Part shown: in pieces, positions 1-9,089 of the stretch | How positions within the stretch are numbered: position 1 is the stretch's first letter | How the letters are laid out: each line of letters begins with the position of its first letter | UHGV virus genome: UHGV-1950618 | Length of the DNA: 15,356 nucleotides | Source: a virus | Direction: 5' to 3' (one strand) | Made by a program: the position numbers and the translations under genes | The notes under the pieces: model-generated | Told to the model about the DNA's origin: nothing | Databases searched by the model: none | What the model saw: the letters and a program-made list of their open reading frames with translations, nothing else

Positions 1-264
1 CGTCCGGTCCCCACGGGTAGGGAGCCAAAAGAAGGTGAGTACGTTGTCTCTTTGCCAGTGCTACCAGCAATGAAGGCTGCACTCCACAACGCGATGATAG
101 AAACCGGCACACGCAAAGCAGAGTTGGCGCGCAAACTCGGAAAAAATGGAACACAGATTGATCGGCTTCTCGACGTCGAACATTCATCGAAAGTTGAAAC
201 TGTCGAGCTGGCACTGCATCAACTGAATAAAAATATCGCCGTATCTGTCACACCAATGCGGTGA
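1..264 (+). CDS. hicB: HicB-family antitoxin, C-terminal portion; the frame is open from nt 1 so the gene starts upstream of the window
   Basis: Frame 1 is open from nt 1 to the TGA at 262-264. The C-terminal sequence ELARKLGKNGTQIDRLLDVEHSSKVETVELALHQLNKNIAVSV closely parallels, from memory, the DNA-binding tail of E. coli HicB (ELARRIGKPKQEITRLFNLHHATKIDAVQLAAKALGKELSLV). The track start at 52 is an internal Met. Confidence 0.75.
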   Translation, partial: RPVPTGREPKEGEYVVSLPVLPAMKAALHNAMIETGTRKAELARKLGKNGTQIDRLLDVEHSSKVETVELALHQLNKNIAVSVTPMR

Positions 265-376: not shown

Positions 377-1762
377 TCAGGTTTCCAGCCCAAAATCGCT
401 TTGTTCTGTTTTGGCTTCGAACATCGTGAAGTTAAGCCCTTTCCCCTCTCCATGTTCCAGTTCAATCTCATTAGAAACAGCGGTCAAAATACTACGTAGA
501 TCGACATCTCCACCGCCGAACATATCGCCCAACGCCTGCTGTTTATGAATCAGTTCGTCGTTGATTTTTTGTGCCATTTTTTTGAATGCAGCCCCCATGC
601 GCTTCGCGCTTCGATTATTTGCCACGATGAATAGCGCCAACGCCTCGGCTTCCGGCGGGCTATCACCGAAGAGTCCGCGCTGGGCTATCACCTCTTCCAC
701 TGCCTGACCGTTGTCTTTGGCTTCACGAACAAGGTTAATCGCGTCCTGGAGTGCTGCTATAGCCTGTTTATCCAGACCGTTCACCTGCTCTATACCATCA
801 ACCAGACCAGTTACAGCATCATGATGTGCATCGCCAGAAATCGACTGCATTTGCGCAAAGTCACTGGCTGCTGTATTAAGCGCGGTCAGGATATTGCGCA
901 TTTCCGGATCCGGTTCTTCCGCCACAAGCCGAACAAGTCGCTCATCCTTATAGGCTTTGGCAAAAATCGCATTCTGAATGCGATCGATAAGCTGTTTCGT
1001 TGGACGTCCATCGGCTGTAAGCAAACCTGCCGTCGCGGTATCGCCTATTTCGTGCAAAAACGCACGAATAAACGCATCATTGGACCGCGCCAGTAGATTT
1101 CCATCATCTGAAGGATTAAATAGCGCCATGACGCTCTCAGTGAGAAATTGCGCATCCGCATACGCTTTCTCACTTGCAGCCATCTCTTGCAGATCGCTGA
1201 TGTTTGAGTCGCGTGCAAATTGAGCACGATCAACGTCAGTGAGGCGCTCGCGAACCAGTACAGGCATCACCATTGCCCTGACGTCTTCGGGATTAAGGCC
1301 AAACTCTTTAGCGTGATCGATAAGATATTGTCGGTAATCTTCAGCCTGTCCTTGTTCATAAGCACGCCAGATTCCCATGCTTCGACCATTACCAGACTCA
1401 ACGACATTATCCGGACCAACAATCGGGGAACCATGACTACTCATACCCGAATCAGTGAGCTGTGCCGGGCGTAAATTGGCGGCGATACGGTTAACCTGGA
1501 GCTTACTTGACAGTCGGGTGCGATCGCGAGGCTGGAGTTCCTCCGGAAATGACGGATTTATACTTCCGTCCAGGTTGTTAGAAATGATGAGCTTTTTGGC
1601 ATCAATAACCTTGAACGCTGTTTTAACTTCGTCGCCTTTGCTGGTGACGACATAGCTGCTACGCCCCAACTTCGTCTCTTGCTTTTCAAGAGATGACACC
1701 ACAGCGATAACCCCCTCAATGTTCGCTGCGGCCAGAAGTGCTGATGTTACGTTTTGAGTCAC
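377..1762 (-). CDS. hypothetical 461-aa protein with a ParB/Srx-like N-terminal motif and a long helical C-terminal region
   Basis: Long ORF with a GTG start preceded by AAAGGTGG (Shine-Dalgarno-like) 6 nt upstream. Residues ~60-135 read INPSFPEELQPRDR ... GSPIVGPDNVVESGNGRSMGIWRA, which matches the ParB N-terminal pattern (QPR box, then a GxxR..A arginine motif). No Walker A motif. The gene has its own terminator and is separated from the upstream operon by a terminator. Confidence 0.6.
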   Translation of the reverse strand: MTQNVTSALLAAANIEGVIAVVSSLEKQETKLGRSSYVVTSKGDEVKTAFKVIDAKKLIISNNLDGSINPSFPEELQPRDRTRLSSKLQVNRIAANLRPAQLTDSGMSSHGSPIVGPDNVVESGNGRSMGIWRAYEQGQAEDYRQYLIDHAKEFGLNPEDVRAMVMPVLVRERLTDVDRAQFARDSNISDLQEMAASEKAYADAQFLTESVMALFNPSDDGNLLARSNDAFIRAFLHEIGDTATAGLLTADGRPTKQLIDRIQNAIFAKAYKDERLVRLVAEEPDPEMRNILTALNTAASDFAQMQSISGDAHHDAVTGLVDGIEQVNGLDKQAIAALQDAINLVREAKDNGQAVEEVIAQRGLFGDSPPEAEALALFIVANNRSAKRMGAAFKKMAQKINDELIHKQQALGDMFGGGDVDLRSILTAVSNEIELEHGEGKGLNFTMFEAKTEQSDFGLET

Positions 1763-1853: not shown

Positions 1854-2225
1854 TTACGCTGCATACCCGTTAGCTGAAACCCAGTTTACGGTCTGTTCTT
1901 TGGCCTGGTCGAGTGTCAAAAATTCACCAATATATTGAGATATGCCTCTCAAAGCATCGATGAACTCCATTTGTGATGATTTAGTAAATGCACCACTAAG
2001 GAAGTCAGCAACAATTTTAGGCGTTTCTTGTGCCGCCGGTTGCACTTCCTCTTCTTGCTGTTGTGCTGGATTATTCGATGAACCAAGCCCCAGCTTCATC
2101 ATCACTTCAACTATCCGCACGCCAATAGTGACACGTTGTACCGCAGTCGCGCTTTTTTGCGCTGACATCAGCTCAGACAGTTCTTTGCCTAAGCTAAGGC
2201 GCTCCGTTACTGATATTTTCACCAC
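1854..2225 (-). CDS. 123-aa protein of unknown function, last gene of the accessory operon (DdrA-like by position only)
   Basis: GTGGTGA overlap with the stop of the 650-aa gene (translational coupling); a G-rich Shine-Dalgarno-like AAGGGGG lies just upstream. No recognisable motif; Gln/Glu-rich central linker. Confidence 0.55.
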   Translation of the reverse strand: MVKISVTERLSLGKELSELMSAQKSATAVQRVTIGVRIVEVMMKLGLGSSNNPAQQQEEEVQPAAQETPKIVADFLSGAFTKSSQMEFIDALRGISQYIGEFLTLDQAKEQTVNWVSANGYAA

Positions 2226-4171
2226 ACGCCCCCTTGTTGTATCTCTGCCAGAATGTTGATCAGGTGATCGGCTGCCGCACCAACAAGTGACTCGTTCTCA
2301 TCATATCGACCTGCGTTGATAAGAACATTAGCTGCCTCCTGAATGCGATCAAACTCCGCTCTAATCACCGTCAAATCACGGGACGTAAACTGCAACGGCA
2401 CGGATTTCAGATATTCCAGCGCACTGTCCGCCTCCTGATCAGCCTCACTAACTACTGGCCCATCTGAACCTGTATCAGACTCTTGGGGGGATTCAGGTTC
2501 AGACTCAGGTTCTGGTTCTTGTACTGCTTCCGGTGCCTGATCTAATGTCTGTTCAGCTTCGACTACTTCTGATTGATTCTGAAGCGCGTCATAGATATCC
2601 ATTATAAAAAGGTTCTCCCCATCTCCAAGTGGATAAGCGACGTTAGGAAATGCTTTGCGGAAGAGGATTTTTATCTGCGCCTTAAAGGTTTTCAAGTCGC
2701 TTCTAAACAGATCAACATAGCCATCAATATGGTTCGACATACTGGACGCAACCAATTCGCCTGCAATCTCTTTCAATTCATCGTCACCAGGGAGATATAG
2801 CAACTCGTACTGACTGACTTCTTCGTCTGTCAGTTTGCGGTCATACGTAATGATTCCGTGACGAGCATATTCGTAATACGGATCAGCCTGATCAGGACGG
2901 TCAAGTACAGCTTTATTTCCTTCAGGAACCGCACCAACACCCGCCGGGCGAGATTGGAGCGCATAGCGATATTTACCAACCTCCAGGGGATCAGGATGTG
3001 ATGCTGGTTGTGGCTCCTGTTCAGGCTGCGGCTGATCAGTTGGCTCAGGCTGGCCCGGCAACACATCCACTTTGTATTGATCAGCATTATGTTCACGATA
3101 GGCTTTAAGTAATTTGGTTGCAGCGTCCGCTGAACTCCCACCTTTAACAGCACTGACATCAATACTGAAATTGCCTTCTGGTGCCTCAATCGTGACAAAG
3201 CTATCACTGCCTGACGTGACATACTTAACTACAGCACCATTATCCAGCGTTGTTTGGCCTTCTGTAGCAAGATTATGTTTTATGTGTCGCAGTTGATCAT
3301 TGAAGGCACGCTCTTTAGTTCCTTGGCTCTTAGCTGACAATAAATTATCGCGTTTAGCCTGCAATTCCGCGTTAAGGGCTTTTTGTGCGTCTAATTTATT
3401 CTGCATATCATTGAGTGTTGAGCGTTTCTCTGCCAGCCCCCGCTGTGCGTCTTCAACCTGCTCAATCAGCACAGAACGTTCTTCTGCCAGCTTGTCGGCT
3501 TCATTGAGATACCCCTCAATATCAGCCTTCATTTTGTCCTGGCGCTCCTTTGCTTTTTTGAATTTTGCACTGTTACGCTCAATGAGGTTAGAAAGCGCCT
3601 GACACACCTGGCTCAGAGATACATCACGCCCACCGATTGGCGCAACAACATGCGTAACGTTTCTTTTGTTAAGAAGAAACTGAAACGCAACCAGCTCGTC
3701 ATCCCCTTTAATTCTTGTGCCGTCTGCGGTTGGAGAATGGAAAATTATGCTTGTCGTTTGTCCATCGGTTAGAGGTATTTGTGCTGTTACAACAGGGATA
3801 TTAGCAACCCGGCGCACGCGCCCAATGATTGCCCCACCGATACTATTACGTCCGTCTTCATATTCACCTGCCTCATCCGTACCCGCAGCAATGTCAGTGC
3901 CATTCAGGCCGCGATTAAGCGCCCGGACAAATGCTCGCATTGTTTGCGCTAACCGCAATTTTGTTGTGGTTATGGCTTCGAACATTGCCTCATTGGTAGT
4001 TACCAAAATTTCGTTGCCCATATAGGCCAGCTCGATATCTTCCAGCGTCGCAGGCTCGATAAGTAAATCATCCTCGGTGATATCTTCCGCCACCCAACGA
4101 TTAGGCGTATATCCAGTGAGCGTATCTGCAAAAGTGGACTGGATATTTATTCGAATAGGTTTCTTTATCAT
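2219..4171 (-). CDS. 650-aa coiled-coil protein with two acidic Pro/Glu-rich linkers; candidate virion-packaged antirestriction protein (DarA-like by size, position and paralogy)
   Basis: ATG start in an ATGA overlap with the upstream stop, GGAGG 7 nt upstream. Heptad-like charged region at aa ~200-290; linkers PEPTDQPQPEQEPQPASHPDP (2987-3055) and PEAVQEPEPESEPESPQESDTGSD (2432-2536). Residues ~110-215 are paralogous to the N-terminal half of the 205-aa protein encoded immediately upstream. Confidence 0.5.
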   Translation of the reverse strand: MIKKPIRINIQSTFADTLTGYTPNRWVAEDITEDDLLIEPATLEDIELAYMGNEILVTTNEAMFEAITTTKLRLAQTMRAFVRALNRGLNGTDIAAGTDEAGEYEDGRNSIGGAIIGRVRRVANIPVVTAQIPLTDGQTTSIIFHSPTADGTRIKGDDELVAFQFLLNKRNVTHVVAPIGGRDVSLSQVCQALSNLIERNSAKFKKAKERQDKMKADIEGYLNEADKLAEERSVLIEQVEDAQRGLAEKRSTLNDMQNKLDAQKALNAELQAKRDNLLSAKSQGTKERAFNDQLRHIKHNLATEGQTTLDNGAVVKYVTSGSDSFVTIEAPEGNFSIDVSAVKGGSSADAATKLLKAYREHNADQYKVDVLPGQPEPTDQPQPEQEPQPASHPDPLEVGKYRYALQSRPAGVGAVPEGNKAVLDRPDQADPYYEYARHGIITYDRKLTDEEVSQYELLYLPGDDELKEIAGELVASSMSNHIDGYVDLFRSDLKTFKAQIKILFRKAFPNVAYPLGDGENLFIMDIYDALQNQSEVVEAEQTLDQAPEAVQEPEPESEPESPQESDTGSDGPVVSEADQEADSALEYLKSVPLQFTSRDLTVIRAEFDRIQEAANVLINAGRYDENESLVGAAADHLINILAEIQQGGVW

Positions 4172-4785
4172 GCATCTTCCTCCAGGCGCGCTATTTCTTC
4201 TTTCAATACGCGAGTTTTCGCCAGTTCCTGCGCCATCTCGGTTCTAATGATTTCAGTTTCTCTTGTTGCGCGGTCTGAATTACCTTGCACCTGATTTAAT
4301 TTTTCTTTGGCCCTTTCAATATCCTCGCGGATCGCATCGCGAGATTCCTTTGCCTCTGCTAGTTTCTGCGCATTGGACTTAACGCCTTTTATTTTCTTAT
4401 TCCCATCATCAATATCTTTCGCCGCACGAGCTAACTTACGCGCCAATGATTTCTGAAATGATGATGCGCCTTTATTAAATAAAGCAGCCAGTGATTGCCC
4501 TAAAGCCATCAGCGTTTTAACTGGCTTGAAAGGAACAATTTTTCCGTTCAGTTTTACACCAGAAATATCACCAGTATCATTAACCTGAACGTCCATCGTC
4601 TGCTCATCGATTCCGATAAGGGTAAACGTGCGCGTCATGATCCCGTCTTTCTTCCTGCCATTACTGGCGGGGATCACCCTCGCTATCTTGTAGCCTCCTT
4701 TACCGATTTCTTTGACGAGTTTTGCCAGCCCCTTTTCGTTTAACTCATCATAATTAAGAAGAACATAATTAGACTTATTTGACAT
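4168..4785 (-). CDS. 205-aa protein paralogous to a segment of the 650-aa protein (Hdf-like); start re-assigned to the internal ATG
   Basis: The track starts at a TTG (4809), but an ATG at 4785-4783 is preceded by a perfect AAGGAG 6 nt upstream. GKGGYKIARVIPASNG and SLAALFNKGASSFQKSLARKLARAAKD parallel SIGGAIIGRVRRVANI and VCQALSNLIERNSAKFKKAKERQDKMK in the 650-aa protein. C-terminal coiled coil. Confidence 0.5.
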   Translation of the reverse strand: MSNKSNYVLLNYDELNEKGLAKLVKEIGKGGYKIARVIPASNGRKKDGIMTRTFTLIGIDEQTMDVQVNDTGDISGVKLNGKIVPFKPVKTLMALGQSLAALFNKGASSFQKSLARKLARAAKDIDDGNKKIKGVKSNAQKLAEAKESRDAIREDIERAKEKLNQVQGNSDRATRETEIIRTEMAQELAKTRVLKEEIARLEEDA

Positions 4786-5221
4786 TCCAGTCTCCTTCAC
4801 ACTTTTCAATCATAAACTGACGTTCTATGCAGTCATTGATAGGGAAAATGCGATAAAGCGGATTCAGGCGGCAATTACCGTTAGTCAATGTGACCTTTAG
4901 ATCCCACTTCGCTGGCTCAAGATATTTCGTGTCGATGAGCAAATATTCTTCTCTCTCACCGCGTTTTGACGCGTCAACTGGTCTGGTTTTCCCCGAAATA
5001 ACCACAGATGGATTTTTCAAGTCCTGCAACCAATATTCGATTTGTGCATTGCTTACCCAGCTTCGTTTAACGCGAAGCGACACAGGAAACGCTATAGCAG
5101 ACTCTTTCACTACAGCTTCGCCAATGCTCAAAATATCAACACTCTTGCGACGAAATAAGAAACGGTCAATAACGGCAACAAATGCCATGATAAAAATGAA
5201 ATAATTTCCAAAGTCACCCAT
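4775..5221 (-). CDS. 148-aa protein with one N-terminal transmembrane helix; candidate holin regulator (antiholin/LydB-like by position)
   Basis: TAATG stop/start overlap with the upstream holin-like gene. Hydrophobic segment NYFIFIMAFVAVIDRFLF at aa 6-23 followed by a Cys-containing soluble domain; no lysozyme or coiled-coil spanin signature. Confidence 0.45.
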   Translation of the reverse strand: MGDFGNYFIFIMAFVAVIDRFLFRRKSVDILSIGEAVVKESAIAFPVSLRVKRSWVSNAQIEYWLQDLKNPSVVISGKTRPVDASKRGEREEYLLIDTKYLEPAKWDLKVTLTNGNCRLNPLYRIFPINDCIERQFMIEKCEGDWNVK

Positions 5222-5547
5222 TACTTCTCTCCACCTTTTCCCCCACTCGCTATTACGCTTAAGAGATTCAAGACGTTACTAGCTCTGGACTTCAAGCCCT
5301 GTAAAATTTCACTTCCGTTGTTACTGGCAATCAGAACAACGCAGTAAATGATGCCTTCCGGCCATTCATAGCTATCAGCCACCCAAAACCCCGCAAGCCC
5401 GGCAGTTACCGCAGTAAACAATTCACTCGCGAGGTTGAGCAGTGACGCAGAAATGCGCCCGTCTCTAACTCCGAGAAGGAATACGCCGGTTCCACTCAGC
5501 AGGGATGTTATGACTGCTACAGCCAGATTTTCATAATCTGCAAACAT
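5221..5547 (-). CDS. 108-aa three-TM membrane protein, class I holin-like (LydA-like by position)
   Basis: Three hydrophobic helices (aa ~8-27, 36-57, 65-85) and a charged C-terminal tail ending KGGEK; ATG preceded by GGAGGGG. First gene after a ~460-bp spacer. Confidence 0.5.
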   Translation of the reverse strand: MFADYENLAVAVITSLLSGTGVFLLGVRDGRISASLLNLASELFTAVTAGLAGFWVADSYEWPEGIIYCVVLIASNNGSEILQGLKSRASNVLNLLSVIASGGKGGEK

Positions 5548-5859
5548 ACCCCTCCAGAAATGACGTTTAACGCGGCTTCAACTTATCCAGTTTGTTATTT
5601 CCCGACTAAATGCCATTCACACAAAATGGATGCATATGATGGCCCGGTGGTCCGTAAACCTCGTCACTCAGAGCGTGGAGGATGCCAAATTCGCGTATCA
5701 ACAAAATGGTCCAAACACGGCTTTAAAGAGAAATACGCTTGAATGCGCAAGATGTGAGCTGATTCTTGAGGACAAAATGATGACATGTGAGTCTTCACAA
5801 GCGTCATTCAGTGAATATAATGCCCCCCTCTCAGATACCACTAACTGAGTGTTCATTTT

Positions 5860-5893
5860 GCCCGCCGTCATTGACTGGACGGCGGCTTTTTTG
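5860..5893 (+). terminator. plus-strand intrinsic terminator with no convincing plus-strand gene upstream
   Basis: 8-bp GC stem CCGCCGTC/GACGGCGG (5862-5869 with 5878-5885), 8-nt loop, then C plus TTTTTT (5887-5892). Confidence 0.7.
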
Positions 5894-5942
5894 TACCAAA
5901 GGATTGTATTACTAAAAAAGGTCACAAAAGCACTCACTAATA

Positions 5943-5965
5943 AAGCCCTCAACAAAAGAGGGCTT
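5943..5965 (-). terminator. candidate terminator downstream of the tail-fibre assembly gene
   Basis: 8-bp stem AAGCCCTC/GAGGGCTT with 7-nt loop, 43 nt after the tfa stop; on the minus strand followed by UAUUAGUGAGUGCUUUUGUGACCUUUUUU (interrupted U tract). Confidence 0.5.
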
Positions 5966-6007
5966 GAAATATCAAAAAAGCAGTGCTGATTGGATTGTTA
6001 TGATTGT

Positions 6008-6430
6008 TTATGCAGGCATCTCAGGCCATGAGATATCTGCATCAACAGAAGTGTCAACTCTATTAAGAAGAACTCTATACCTCTTTAACTTTGTCAACAT
6101 TTCTATTTCCTCATCAGTGGCAATATCCATATCAACAGCATCCTGAAGCGTTGATATTTTTATGCTCACATCATTCATAAGACTACTTTTGGTGTTTTCA
6201 GCAATGCTGACTCTATCCTCTAAGCTCATAGGTTGTGGGTCAGATAACATTGGATAACCATCGCCATTTGCAATTATTATTTTCCCATTGCCATACCCTG
6301 ATAACAATTCATCATATAAGTCATCAGGTATATGTACAGCATCGGACGGCCATGAACCGTTTTTATCGTAATCTTCTTTTAGTCTATCGTCGTAGAAACC
6401 ACCAGTATCTTTGCTGTAATACTTTGCCAT
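6008..6430 (-). CDS. tfa: tail fibre assembly chaperone (Tfa / P2 gpG / P1 U family)
   Basis: C-terminus KLKRYRVLLNRVDTSVDADISWPEMPA matches the conserved Tfa C-terminal signature (KYRVLLNRVDTS...WP). Lies directly downstream of the tail fibre gene; AT-rich. Confidence 0.85.
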   Translation of the reverse strand: MAKYYSKDTGGFYDDRLKEDYDKNGSWPSDAVHIPDDLYDELLSGYGNGKIIIANGDGYPMLSDPQPMSLEDRVSIAENTKSSLMNDVSIKISTLQDAVDMDIATDEEIEMLTKLKRYRVLLNRVDTSVDADISWPEMPA

Positions 6431-6461
6431 TTAAAAGCCTTCATTCTAATTAACTATATTT

Positions 6462-9089
6462 TTAATACCCATAAGCAACATACTGTGCATATACTTTATC
6501 AGTAGAGCTACTTTTTACTGTAAAACCAGTGGCTGAGTTGTTGTATGTATAAAGAATTGCATTAACAGCATTCCCGCTATTAGGTGAAATCACAACTACC
6601 GCACACGCCTCAGGAAAAGCAGTCGGAAATTTAACTACGCTTCCTGGAGTAACAGCCGCTATAATCCCCCACTGCATCATCACCTTAGTTGATGTATCCT
6701 TATGCCATCCATGAATGTTGGCATATGCTGTGTTTTTAGCCTGATATTTCGTGTTGAAATTACTATAGTTACCAGGGGTAATCTGACCAGCGGCAGATAA
6801 ATTCCCCATAACCCTTACATGACCATCAGCACGTCCTAATTCTACGCGACCATCACCGCCATCTATCTTTAATGGAGTGTAAACGACATCACCATTAACA
6901 TTTTGCCCAGTGGTTGATATCTGGAAACTATATCCAGTATTAGTTATTAGGAATCCATAGTTATTATTATAAGTTAGGCGTATAGCATTTTGGCTGCTGG
7001 ATATAATTTCACCGGTAACAGTACCACCTGTTGTTGGTAACGCACCAACATGACTTGCCGTTAATGTGATATCTGCAGAACCATCAAACTTAACACCGTT
7101 GATTGTGCGGGCTGTTTGCAGTTTTGTAGCGGTTGCAGCATTACCTGTTGTGTTCTGGTTACCGGCAATGTTCACACCCGGCAGGTTGATATTGGCGCTG
7201 CCATCAAATGCCACCCCGCCGATTGTGCGTGCCGTCTGAAGTTTTGTTGCGGTTGCAGCATTACCGGTTGTGCTCTGATTACCTGTTTTATTAACGCCCG
7301 GCAGGTCGATATTGGCGGTGCCATCAAATGCCACCCCGCCGATCGTTCGGGCCATCTTGAGCTTTGTGGCAGTATCTGCGTTTCCCGTCAAATTACCTGT
7401 AATGCCACCACTAACTGTTACCCCATTACCGATGGACACCAACCCGGTTCTTAAATTTATAGCAAAAGGTCTTAATGGGCCGATGTCACCATTTTCTCCC
7501 TCACCTTCATTTGTCGGGATAAGATGAAGATATTCCTCGGATCTCCTGAAGATAAGGCCAAAGTCCTGGTTAAATATTCGAAGGGCATTTATTGTGCCAA
7601 TTTTTAGCTGCCCCCCCATTGTGTCGCCAGAACGCTGAACTGCGTTACCAGCTTGAGAAGCAATATCCGTTAAGCCAAGATCTTCAGGGGTCAGAGTAAT
7701 ATCTGCCGACCCATCAAATGCCACACCGTTAATCTTTCTGGCTGTTTTTAATTTCGTCGCAGTATCGGCGTTCCCGGTCAGCGTACCAGTGATCCCCGCG
7801 CTGAAAGTCTGGCGTGCACTCCAGGTATTAGCTGTGCTCAACAGGGGGAGCTTTTCTCCGCTGGTTCCGAGTTCTCTTAAACCAAGGTATTGGATAACAG
7901 CCAGTGTGCTTGTTTTAGCAAGAATATCGCGACCGACTGACGTTAAATCAGTCTGGGCTACAGTGTCTGTTCCGGTAAAGTACGGTAATTTATTTGCCCC
8001 CGTCGCCAGGTCAGCGAGCGCGGTTAAGGTTGCGTCGAGAGGCTGCTTACCTGCCAGGGCATTTGTCATTGTAGCCGCAAAGTTCGGGTCATTGCCCAGC
8101 GCCGCAGCAAGCTCATTAAGAGTATCAAGAGCTTCTGGTGATGAGCCGACCAATGCAGAAATAGCGGCACGAACATAAGCGGTTGTTGCAATCTGAGTGT
8201 TGTTCGTACCTTGTGACGCTGTAGGCGCTGTTGGCACCCCTGTAAATGCCGGGCTTAATAACGGTGCTTTAAGAGCTAAAGCAGCATTAATCGTCTGGCT
8301 AAACTGAGGATCATTGTTAATTGCATCTGCAATTTTTTTCAGCGTATCCAACGCTGAAGGAGAACCATCAATAAGGGCGGTTATTGCGGCCTGAACAAAG
8401 GCAGTGTTTGCGATTTGTGTACTGTTTGTACCTTGTTCCGGAGTTGGAGATTTAGGTATACCAATAAACTCCGGGCTATCAACCGGAGCTTTTAGTTTGT
8501 TTAACGTGCTGATAGCAAGAGGTGTTGCGGCTTTATATTCTTCGTCACTATCCAAAGCACTGGAAAACTCAACACCAACAGCACGATTAGCACGATATTC
8601 AGTGCTAATCATATCTGCGGTAACGGCTTGAGCATTGTCAGGCACGATCACGCGGCATAGCTCAATCTGGTTAGATGCTATTTCCTCATCAACGAGAGCA
8701 ATAATTCTCGCTGCGCTAATATCCGATGAGCTATCTACCTGGCTGGTTTTCACTCCATGTTCGTAATTAGCTTCAAGAACGATGATTGTCGTTACACCAG
8801 CTTCTACAGGAACAAGAACATCACTGACTTGCTGCACGGATATCTGACATTTACCCACGTCAATTGAAGCCGCCCCTCTTCCCTCTGTTTTCTCGGATGT
8901 AATACGCACAAACAGACCATCCCCTGGCACCGGTTCAAACCCACAGTACACTCCGGGCAGAACGATATTTTTCATCTTCCTGTTTAGAGCTTCGGTGCTA
9001 TACAGCTCAAAGTATTGCATGTCTGCAATTAGTGGAGCGGAAATGTCCGAAGATAAGGTGACAATATTCTTTACTTTATCTGCGCACAT
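6462..9089 (-). CDS. tail fibre protein (875 aa)
   Basis: Characteristic fibre repeats: two ~75-aa units (PxxSPxFxG.P..P....GTN.TQIA.TA.V.AAI.AL..SP.ALDTL...A.A..NDP.F) and four ~40-aa units (TGNA.TATKL.TAR.I.GV.FDGSA.I.L). ATG start 2 nt after the upstream stop. Followed by tfa. Confidence 0.9.
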   Translation of the reverse strand: MCADKVKNIVTLSSDISAPLIADMQYFELYSTEALNRKMKNIVLPGVYCGFEPVPGDGLFVRITSEKTEGRGAASIDVGKCQISVQQVSDVLVPVEAGVTTIIVLEANYEHGVKTSQVDSSSDISAARIIALVDEEIASNQIELCRVIVPDNAQAVTADMISTEYRANRAVGVEFSSALDSDEEYKAATPLAISTLNKLKAPVDSPEFIGIPKSPTPEQGTNSTQIANTAFVQAAITALIDGSPSALDTLKKIADAINNDPQFSQTINAALALKAPLLSPAFTGVPTAPTASQGTNNTQIATTAYVRAAISALVGSSPEALDTLNELAAALGNDPNFAATMTNALAGKQPLDATLTALADLATGANKLPYFTGTDTVAQTDLTSVGRDILAKTSTLAVIQYLGLRELGTSGEKLPLLSTANTWSARQTFSAGITGTLTGNADTATKLKTARKINGVAFDGSADITLTPEDLGLTDIASQAGNAVQRSGDTMGGQLKIGTINALRIFNQDFGLIFRRSEEYLHLIPTNEGEGENGDIGPLRPFAINLRTGLVSIGNGVTVSGGITGNLTGNADTATKLKMARTIGGVAFDGTANIDLPGVNKTGNQSTTGNAATATKLQTARTIGGVAFDGSANINLPGVNIAGNQNTTGNAATATKLQTARTINGVKFDGSADITLTASHVGALPTTGGTVTGEIISSSQNAIRLTYNNNYGFLITNTGYSFQISTTGQNVNGDVVYTPLKIDGGDGRVELGRADGHVRVMGNLSAAGQITPGNYSNFNTKYQAKNTAYANIHGWHKDTSTKVMMQWGIIAAVTPGSVVKFPTAFPEACAVVVISPNSGNAVNAILYTYNNSATGFTVKSSSTDKVYAQYVAYGY
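7050..7440 (-). repeat. three tandem ~120-nt coding repeats inside the tail fibre gene, plus a fourth dispersed copy at ~7680-7799
   Basis: Near-identical DNA units are visible at ~7081-7200, 7201-7320 and 7321-7440. GVAFDG is encoded at 7320-7337 and again at 7710-7727 (checked by reverse-complement translation). Confidence 0.85.
8040..8495 (-). repeat. two consecutive ~75-aa fibre repeats (coding)
   Basis: aa ~199-272 and 273-350 of the fibre share the same motif order; the corresponding DNA at ~8161-8280 and ~8341-8460 is visibly similar. Confidence 0.7.

Follow-up and report, generated by a model that had tools for sequence, protein, structure and literature searches.

A darA-hdf gene pair in a D6-lineage, P1-related plasmid prophage and the modular layout of its DarA protein

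A gene for a 650-aa protein, found in a 15,356-nucleotide stretch of viral DNA (UHGV virus genome UHGV-1950618; hereafter the window), raises the question of what is encoded by a reading frame that combines a coiled coil, two acidic linkers and a segment seemingly duplicated in the upstream 205-aa gene. A preliminary description took the product for a virion protein, either modular or proteolytically processed. The gene (2219-4171, minus strand, ATG start) matches the NCBIfam equivalog model of the DarA internal head/anti-restriction protein (NF052326, anti_RE_DarA) with 1083.7 bits, the curated cutoff being 350, and over residues 2-649, which align to positions 1-654 of the 654-position profile, and a UniRef protein 100% identical to it (P0001) bears the name DarA. 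In phmmer, residues 35-649 aligned to P1 DarA from the cryo-EM structure (PDB 9UKM_I) with an E value of 3.3e-124; a Foldseek search with the full model returned 9ukm_I (E 8.8e-20, 303 columns) and 9vz0_I as its sole matches. Together with the curated family, the Pfam domains DarA_N (PF18788) and, further along, DarA_C (PF18789) identify a known phage head protein, and the region that had looked conserved but had been left without a name, YRYALQSRPAG...YYEYARHG, is DarA_C. In P1-type phages, DarA resides inside the head (PMC12810830; PMC9024508), in agreement with the virion protein first suggested.

The surroundings of the gene tell the same story, as darA sits in the lydA-lydB-hdf-darA-ddrA-ddrB late operon of P1-type phage-plasmids, here entirely on the minus strand. 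The operon is headed by a holin/antiholin pair, lydA (5221-5547; PHROG holin and lysis families) and lydB (4775-5221; Pfam LydB, E 1.5e-24, and PHROG lysis families), and continues with hdf (4168-4785), a 205-aa frame with an ATG start and a GGAG Shine-Dalgarno sequence, for which the RefSeq annotation gives the same 618-nt CDS. The stop codon of hdf overlaps the darA start (ATGA), and the darA stop is in turn overlapped by the GTG start of ddrA (1854-2225; PHROG 1855, 'DdrA-like anti-restriction protein', E 1.4e-44). The last gene is a short ddrB of 461 aa (377-1762; Pfam ddrB-ParB, E 2.7e-40), which holds the ParB-like N-terminal part only and shares 64% identity with P1 DdrB (995 aa) over residues 2-442 of the latter. 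Plasmids of E. coli that measure 89.7-92.8 kb match the window at 99.5-99.6% identity, and the element is an E. coli plasmid prophage of ~90 kb that belongs to the D6 lineage and is related to P1. The curated equivalog model, the kept gene order and homology over the full length to the P1 proteins DarA and Hdf, both solved in situ, establish the 650-aa and 205-aa genes by homology as darA and hdf. The gene pair is thus already known, from a curated and named family and from a common E. coli phage-plasmid. Taken as a whole, the locus is with very high probability the hdf/darA pair of a D6-lineage, P1-related plasmid prophage, with P1-type roles and further parts that we infer below. Upstream of lydA, AAGTTGAAG...TTAAAC (~5565-5584, minus strand) is a weak match to the P1 late promoter AAGTTACTT...TACCAT, and we do not claim a P1-type promoter there. 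Rfam models found no RNA family in the entire window. On the plus strand, three open reading frames lie within darA (2573-2800, 3300-3602 and 3717-4025); they run antisense to a conserved gene and we take them as chance occurrences.

The resemblance between DarA and the upstream protein had been noticed by eye and read as paralogy. The 205-aa protein matches PHROG 1620 ('Hdf-like antirestriction', E 3e-72) and, in phmmer, P1 Hdf (9ukm_H, E 1.9e-25), and Hdf is known to have a DarA_N domain (PMC5512222); in the window protein, Pfam places DarA_N at residues 19-114 of the 213-aa reading from a TTG start (E 7e-18, 65 bits against a cutoff of 27). Direct comparison of DarA with Hdf gave a marginal result, as BLASTP aligned the helix segment only and with an E value of 0.019, which is what would be expected if the two proteins had a coiled-coil composition in common and not an ancestor. 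Profile methods speak against this explanation. The globular DarA_N profile scores 136 bits in DarA and 65 bits in Hdf against its cutoff of 27, hhalign, run on small family alignments, matches DarA 112-261 to Hdf 30-178 (E 1e-5, probability 82%), covering the beta-rich part besides the helix, and published work on P1 regards Hdf as homologous to DarA (PMC5512222; PMC12810830). The hhalign register is that of the original alignment by eye (GGAIIGRV with GGYKIARV) and continues into the helix. We therefore consider resemblance by composition extremely improbable, and the homology searches confirm the hdf product as a paralogue of the N-terminal part of DarA.

The modular layout proposed earlier holds as well, DarA consisting of DarA_N, a long helix, a penton-binding-type domain, a DarA_C unit and a C-terminal bundle, with two disordered linkers. 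Following a predicted N-terminal propeptide (residues 1-65, 3977-4171), the alpha+beta DarA_N domain spans residues 66-185 (3617-3976; Pfam match at 62-201, E 7.7e-40); the segment has a pI of 9.5 and is the best conserved of the protein, with a mean identity of 72%. In P1, this domain binds hexons and faces the DNA (PMC12810830). The supposed coiled coil is predicted by AlphaFold2 as a single alpha-helix of 96 residues (186-281, 3329-3616), and the corresponding P1 helix domain forms a parallel pair with the helix of Hdf on the inside of the capsid (PMC12810830). Residues 282-372 (3056-3328) form a predicted alpha/beta domain, the equivalent of the P1 penton-binding domain: they align with modelled P1 DarA residues up to 382, and AlphaFold2 places secondary-structure elements at 294-366 with a pLDDT of about 80. 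The DarA_C beta core and a helical bundle make up one unit of ~130-150 aa (residues 396-543, 2543-2986; Pfam match at 399-461, E 4.3e-19), whose core is modelled with confidence and for which the PDB contains no structural relative; Y403, R408, P409 and R437 in the core are invariant. The C-terminal three-helix bundle (SEADQEAD..., residues 576-650, 2222-2446) is predicted with helices at 576-594, 600-619 and 623-647 and pLDDT of 80-89, and its length is steady in the family (65-69 aa). The C-terminal half of the protein, 373-650, has a net charge of about -35, and Pfam recognized no enzymatic effector or peptidase domain in the window DarA.

Both acidic linkers reported at the outset (2987-3055 and 2432-2536) are predicted to be disordered by AlphaFold2. 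The second was reported with boundaries that correspond to residues 546-580; we place it at 544-575. Linker 1 (residues 373-395, 2987-3055, GQPEPTDQPQPEQEPQPASHPDP) is rich in Pro, Glu and Gln: 35% of the residues are Pro and 78% are E, D, Q or P, with no K or R, and pLDDT is below 50 at 375-394. It lies where the ordered density of P1 DarA stops (residue 382) and so marks a clean border between the capsid-anchored and the tethered part of the protein. Linker 2 (residues 544-575, 2447-2542), a Pro/Glu stretch with a net charge of -10 and pLDDT below 50 at 543-574, contains a 6-nt unit repeated imperfectly about four times (caggttcagactcaggttctggttct, 2494-2519). The short-period repetitiveness ascribed to the linker DNA is thus present in a weak form, and Tandem Repeats Finder reported no array over 2200-4850 even at score 30.

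Slippage at such repeats had been suggested as a source of length variation. Among the 112 family representatives in which lengths were measurable, DarA ranges from 623 to 927 aa and all of the variation falls within the two linkers, the gap equivalent to linker 1 covering 14-277 aa and that equivalent to linker 2 covering 23-257 aa (53 aa in the window DarA). Comparison with relatives, on which the case for slippage is built, revealed copy-number changes of 6-nt units, such as two or four copies of CACAAC and one or two of GGAGCC. Most of the family length variation comes, however, from whole inserted modules, of which we found at least seven types in 50 of the 112 representatives; a Pfam scan of eight such modules gave nothing at E <= 0.05. 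A double frameshift was considered for the non-acidic linker 1 of one relative (L017) and ruled out, since in the DNA alignment the segment is seen to have been replaced. The linkers are the least conserved part of DarA (17-26% mean identity) and, from these comparisons, appear to accept both repeat-unit indels and the insertion of whole modules. As the sole length-changing sites, they suggest a place for adding cargo to P1-type transducing particles by engineering.

Proteolytic processing, the other property first proposed, probably does take place, but at the N terminus and not at the acidic linkers. In P1, the prohead protease trims DarA (PMC12810830; PMC9024508), taking ~69 residues off the N terminus: the cryo-EM map shows nothing of residues 1-69, and cleavage of a ~9-kDa fragment is reported (PMC12810830), while N-terminal sequencing gave no clear signal (PMC9024508). 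In the window DarA, residues 1-71 have pLDDT below 50, and across 54 sequences the residue equivalent to E65 never varies and A66 is kept in 90% or more. The site can be likened to that of the P1 major capsid protein, which is cut at KAMLE/SVAAEM (the slash marking the cut), and P1 DarA reads DLLE68-A69-I70. A prohead protease cut after E65 (AMFE/AITT), removing ~65 N-terminal residues, is therefore likely, and hydrophobic-x-E/A, at E65 in the window DarA and E68 in P1, is a candidate DarA site of this protease. A different reading makes the linkers themselves the protease sites, so that DarA would be a small polyprotein from which cleavage yields three separate parts. Such processing, by an embedded metallopeptidase, has been proposed for large polyvalent proteins, and P1 DdrB has a domain of this kind (PMC5512222). 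The predicted disorder and exposure of the linkers would suit this, yet the processing reported for P1 DarA removes just ~9 kDa and density is absent at the N terminus, the window DdrB is without the C-terminal peptidase half, and the linkers, the part of DarA with the lowest identity, show no conserved hydrophobic-x-Glu motif of the kind present at E39 and E65. We regard cleavage at the linkers as very unlikely and retain the N-terminal cut.

What the pair does in the virion can be proposed by transfer from P1, where DarA-Hdf lines the inner capsid, binds DNA, sets head size, loads the Dar proteins and exits with the DNA (PMC12810830; bioRxiv 10.1101/2025.11.26.689930). By this analogy, DarA and Hdf would be packaged early into the prohead, and the prohead protease would remove the N-terminal ~65 residues of DarA at MFE65/A66. 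Their long helices would pair in parallel, and the pairs, 55 per head if as in P1, would sit against the inside of the capsid where pentons and hexons meet, with the basic DarA_N domains touching the packaged DNA. The pair would favour large heads, be needed to load DdrA, DdrB, DarB and Ulx, and exit the head with the DNA, which may then be shielded from some type I restriction systems (EcoA/StySA in P1). Linker 1 would serve as a hinge, with the N-terminal module (66-372) anchored to the capsid on one side and, on the other, a strongly acidic C-terminal half (373-650) on a flexible tether; the latter half is disordered in the P1 maps (PMC12810830). This half, the DarA_C core and the three-helix bundle joined by linker 2, is most likely a docking or effector part. 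As DarA and Hdf are each only ~40% identical to their P1 counterparts (BLASTP), features such as copy number and specificity for restriction systems need not be as in P1, and the Dar set is not identical to that of P1 because the window DdrB is without the C-terminal half of P1 DdrB.

DarA might have no direct activity against restriction. It could be a capsid-size determinant and an internal scaffold or loading platform and nothing more, protection coming from the proteins that it loads. In P1 without DarA or Hdf, large heads drop from ~80% to ~15% and all other Dar proteins are excluded (PMC12810830; PMC12707154), so that the restriction phenotypes are confounded by the shift in head size and the loss of the other Dar proteins; the ordered part of DarA is, moreover, a capsid- and DNA-binding strut. 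On the other hand, the DarA-Hdf pairs exit the head together with the DNA, and DarA_N and DarA_C recur beside effector domains (ART, PBECR nucleases and InPase, among others) in polyvalent proteins (PMC5512222), suggesting an early role after injection. We find the purely structural account rather unlikely. A further, tentative possibility, less likely than not, is that DarA acts as a capsid-anchored delivery chassis, in which 66-372 is fixed to the shell and Hdf, the linkers are insertion points for swapped, unrelated cargo modules, and the DarA_C unit is perhaps the real effector or docking site after injection. That unit (~130 aa) is invariant in the family and also found solo and inside giant polyvalent proteins. 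The pattern overlaps the published polyvalent-protein concept, and we found no description of it specifically for DarA of P1-like phages.

Among known systems, P1 is one of the closest counterparts. P1 DarA (YP_006494; PDB 9UKM and 9VZ0, chain I) is encoded in the same operon position, within the same lydA-lydB-hdf-darA-ddrA-ddrB order, and has the same domains in the same order over its full length: propeptide, DarA_N, long helix, penton-binding domain, linker, DarA_C with helical bundle, linker and C-terminal bundle. The proteins measure 639 and 650 aa in P1 and the window, respectively; linker 2 is ~20 residues longer in the latter (a gap of 53 versus 30 aa), and identity falls to 17% in the propeptide and 28% in the helix. 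Hdf, of 203 aa in P1 and 205 aa in the window, has in both a DarA_N-type N-domain followed by a C-terminal helix, which in P1 (PDB 9UKM, chain H) pairs with the DarA helix. D6 is a closer relative: its DarA and Hdf (YP_009914704 and YP_009914705) are 78-80% identical to the window proteins, and D6 and D6-like plasmid prophages have the identical order, lydA-lydB-hdf-darA-ddrA-short ddrB. The window represents a sub-lineage ~79% identical to D6 in DNA; its linker 2 has eight more residues (QESDTGSD), and it is without the cin gene and the invertible tail-fibre segment that D6 has beside lydA. DarA_N and DarA_C are also modules of the phage polyvalent proteins, virion-delivered multidomain proteins (Iyer et al. 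2017, PMC5512222). DarA relatives resemble these in having extra modules between low-complexity linkers, and the window DarA, with 650 aa, no recognizable enzymatic effector and no peptidase, would be a minimal member. A more distant parallel is offered by the T4 internal proteins IPI-IPIII, which reside inside the head, accompany the DNA on injection and carry at the N terminus a capsid-targeting sequence that the prohead protease cuts off after Glu. To our knowledge, they have no sequence or fold relationship with DarA and, unlike them, DarA would by analogy with P1 be anchored to the capsid shell and control head size.

The 650-aa protein encoded at 2219–4171 (minus strand, ATG start) is, judged from its sequence, DarA, and by the same measure the 205-aa product of the gene upstream is Hdf, both known head proteins of P1/D6-type phages. 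Over its whole length, the former fits the NCBIfam equivalog model NF052326 ("antirestriction phage head protein DarA"; score 1083.7 bits, threshold 350), and it matched the P1 DarA chain of the cryo-EM structure (PDB 9ukm_I) with an E-value of 3e-124; in UniRef, a 100% identical protein is already named DarA and the 90% cluster has 341 members. Hdf matched PHROG 1620 (E 3e-72) and the P1 Hdf chain 9ukm_H (E 2e-25), and in every sequence-level comparison the two proteins fell within the DarA and Hdf families. The DNA of the window is ~79% identical to phage D6 and 99.5–99.6% identical to non-mobilizable Escherichia coli plasmids of 89.7–92.8 kb, which identifies its source as a plasmid prophage of the D6 lineage, related to P1. 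Nearly all genes of the window lie on the minus strand. The open reading frame of hdf spans 4168–4809, its biologically sensible start being the ATG at 4785 with GGAG before it; this start gives the 205-aa protein already seen in the preliminary description and equals the 618-nt RefSeq CDS on a plasmid 99.5% identical to the window. The hdf stop and the darA start overlap as ATGA and the darA stop is likewise overlapped by the start codon (GTG) of the following gene, the genes thus forming a tightly coupled operon.

All elements of the preliminary description were found in this region. It had proposed that the 205-aa protein is paralogous to a segment of the 650-aa protein: while their pairwise alignment with BLASTP was unconvincing (E 0.019), profile searches established the relationship, as Pfam DarA_N was found in both (136 bits in DarA and 65 bits in Hdf, cutoff 27) and hhalign paired DarA residues 112–261 with Hdf residues 30–178 in the register proposed (E 1e-5). 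The window DarA maps onto the plan of P1 DarA, with a propeptide predicted to be removed (residues 1–65), DarA_N (66–185, pI 9.5), a long helix whose P1 counterpart pairs with the Hdf helix (186–281), a penton-binding-like domain (282–372), and a tethered C-terminal half with a net charge of about −35 (373–650). In the AlphaFold2 model, for which 54 family sequences were used, the coiled coil described earlier is a single long helix, 186–281, and pLDDT is below 50 at residues 1–71, 375–394, and 543–574. Of the two acidic Pro/Glu linkers, linker 1 (residues 373–395; 2987–3055) reads GQPEPTDQPQPEQEPQPASHPDP, with 35% proline and zero basic residues, and lies where the ordered density of P1 DarA stops; linker 2, originally placed at 2432–2536 (residues 546–580), covers residues 544–575 by composition and disorder and has a net charge of −10. 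Conservation along DarA is highest in the DarA_N and DarA_C segments and lowest in the linkers.

In P1, cryo-EM places 55 DarA–Hdf pairs at the penton–hexon junctions on the inside of the capsid shell, the long helices of the two proteins pairing in parallel, the DarA N-domain sitting on the hexon and its third domain on the penton, and the N-domains of both turning a basic surface towards the DNA; DarA residues 1–69 are absent, which fits the Pro protease having cut off ~9 kDa, residues 383–639 are disordered, and the pairs are absent from heads after DNA ejection (PMC12810830; bioRxiv 10.1101/2025.11.26.689930). P1 without DarA or without Hdf makes mostly small heads, and DdrA, DdrB, DarB, and Ulx are excluded (PMC12810830). 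Transferred by homology, the DarA–Hdf pair of the window would act through the same steps.

The P1 capsid protein is cut at KAMLE/SVAAEM according to Edman data (PMC9024508). In P1 DarA, DLLE68-A69 directly precedes the first modelled residue, I70, and the candidate site in the window DarA is AMFE65/AITT, where E65 does not vary among 54 diverse homologues and A66 hardly varies; the same homologues share a second invariant N-terminal glutamate, E39, in LLIE/P. Both glutamates (3977–4057, minus strand) stand in hydrophobic-x-E contexts, resembling the measured cut MLE/S in the P1 capsid protein gp23 (L024). The resemblance of the sequences suggests a common Pro protease motif for the DarA N-terminus and the capsid protein. 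The prohead protease may thus recognize hydrophobic-x-Glu/Ala or Ser, and a cut at E65 would leave a mature window DarA of ~64 kDa. Given this candidate site, the proteolytic processing suspected earlier is probably N-terminal and not at the linkers.

The linker DNA had also been described as repetitive and liable to slippage. The string quoted is present at 2494–2519 but amounts to only some four 6-nt units, imperfectly repeated; Tandem Repeats Finder reported nothing in the region. Among 112 full-length family representatives measured (623–927 aa; one more had no anchor-block match), the conserved blocks were constant in size, the N-terminal module ending at 361–382, the DarA_C/helical block spanning 133–135 aa and the C-terminal bundle 65–69 aa, whereas the gap at linker 1 ranged over 14–277 aa and that at linker 2 over 23–257 aa. 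Small differences reflect the copy number of 6-nt units, (CACAAC)2 versus (CACAAC)4 or GGAGCC once versus twice, and support the slippage idea. Large differences, seen in 50 of the 112, come from modules inserted into the linkers; these belong to at least seven unrelated types, some stand in tandem, and no type is known to Pfam. The modules are 70–250 aa long, lie in linker 1 or linker 2, and have Pro/Glu repeats on both sides; the DarA homologues bearing them include P0037, P0040, P0043, P0047, P0048, P0062, P0083, and P0087, from Pantoea, Rosenbergiella, Tatumella, Citrobacter-like and other plasmid prophages. The window DarA has the minimal architecture, its sub-lineage having eight additional residues in linker 2. 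In a D6-like relative (L017, IMGVR_UViG_2778261667_000005), darA carries the non-acidic QDLNRYQNNSQATQNVSKYRHALYQSSLED in place of acidic linker 1; this segment includes KYRHAL, a partial copy of the DarA_C start, and is a replacement, a frameshift having been rejected.

The conserved motif left unnamed in the preliminary description is Pfam DarA_C. The model of residues 396–545 (pLDDT 91.8, pTM 0.82) shows a helical bundle with a small beta core packed against it, and an exhaustive HMMER search with the core found 231 cluster representatives (E ≤ 1e-3). Many of these are solo proteins of 130–150 aa that span the whole unit; others are 700–3,869 aa long and also bear ART-PolyVal, PBECR nuclease, InPase, MuF_C, RadC, or LPD domains, the long multidomain proteins being those that Iyer et al. 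2017 (PMC5512222) described as polyvalent proteins. The unit around DarA_C (2543–2986, minus strand) is ~130 aa, about twice the 70-position Pfam model, and occurs, as in P0126, P0136, P0148, and P0178, either stand-alone in small proteins or within polyvalent proteins, the longest of 3,869 aa. The DarA/Hdf finding is already known and of low specialist interest; only the linker and insertion pattern and the unassigned DarA_C fold offer a mildly new angle.

Elsewhere in the window, the interval from lydA to the U-like tail-fibre assembly gene contains, unlike in P1 and D6, neither a cin invertase nor an invertible alternative tail-fibre segment. In their place lies a 460-bp spacer (5548–6007), unannotated in RefSeq, with a strong sigma-70-like site (5794–5821, 11/12 matches) and a strong terminator-like hairpin (5862–5885) on the plus strand; Pfam gave no match to its 72-aa plus-strand ORF (5630–5848), and GC falls to 0.38–0.39 around it in a profile over 5500–7000. 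Tail-fibre gene S (6462–9089, minus strand) is mosaic, only 7693–8435 matching P1/P7-type S genes (~82% DNA identity), and its C-terminal part matches Gp53-like_C and T4 gp34 trimerisation models. On a 99.5% identical plasmid, the portal gene and ddrB are separated by a HicA toxin gene and, downstream of it, a 432-nt gene that presumably encodes a HicB-type antitoxin; the pair is a toxin–antitoxin insertion within the virion gene block, and the window starts inside the 432-nt gene (1–264, plus strand). DdrB (377–1762, minus strand; 461 aa) corresponds to the first 442 residues of P1 DdrB, which has 995 aa (64% identity); the C-terminal half, where P1 has the predicted metallopeptidase, is missing. 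The D6 ddrB is likewise short, annotated as a 1365-nt CDS. Profile searches identified the neighbours of darA as lydA, lydB, ddrA, and the gene of a ddrB-ParB protein, then tail-fibre, baseplate, and tape-measure genes. This order is the one annotated in P1 and D6. The window DarA shares ~40% protein identity with P1 DarA and 78–80% with D6-type DarA.
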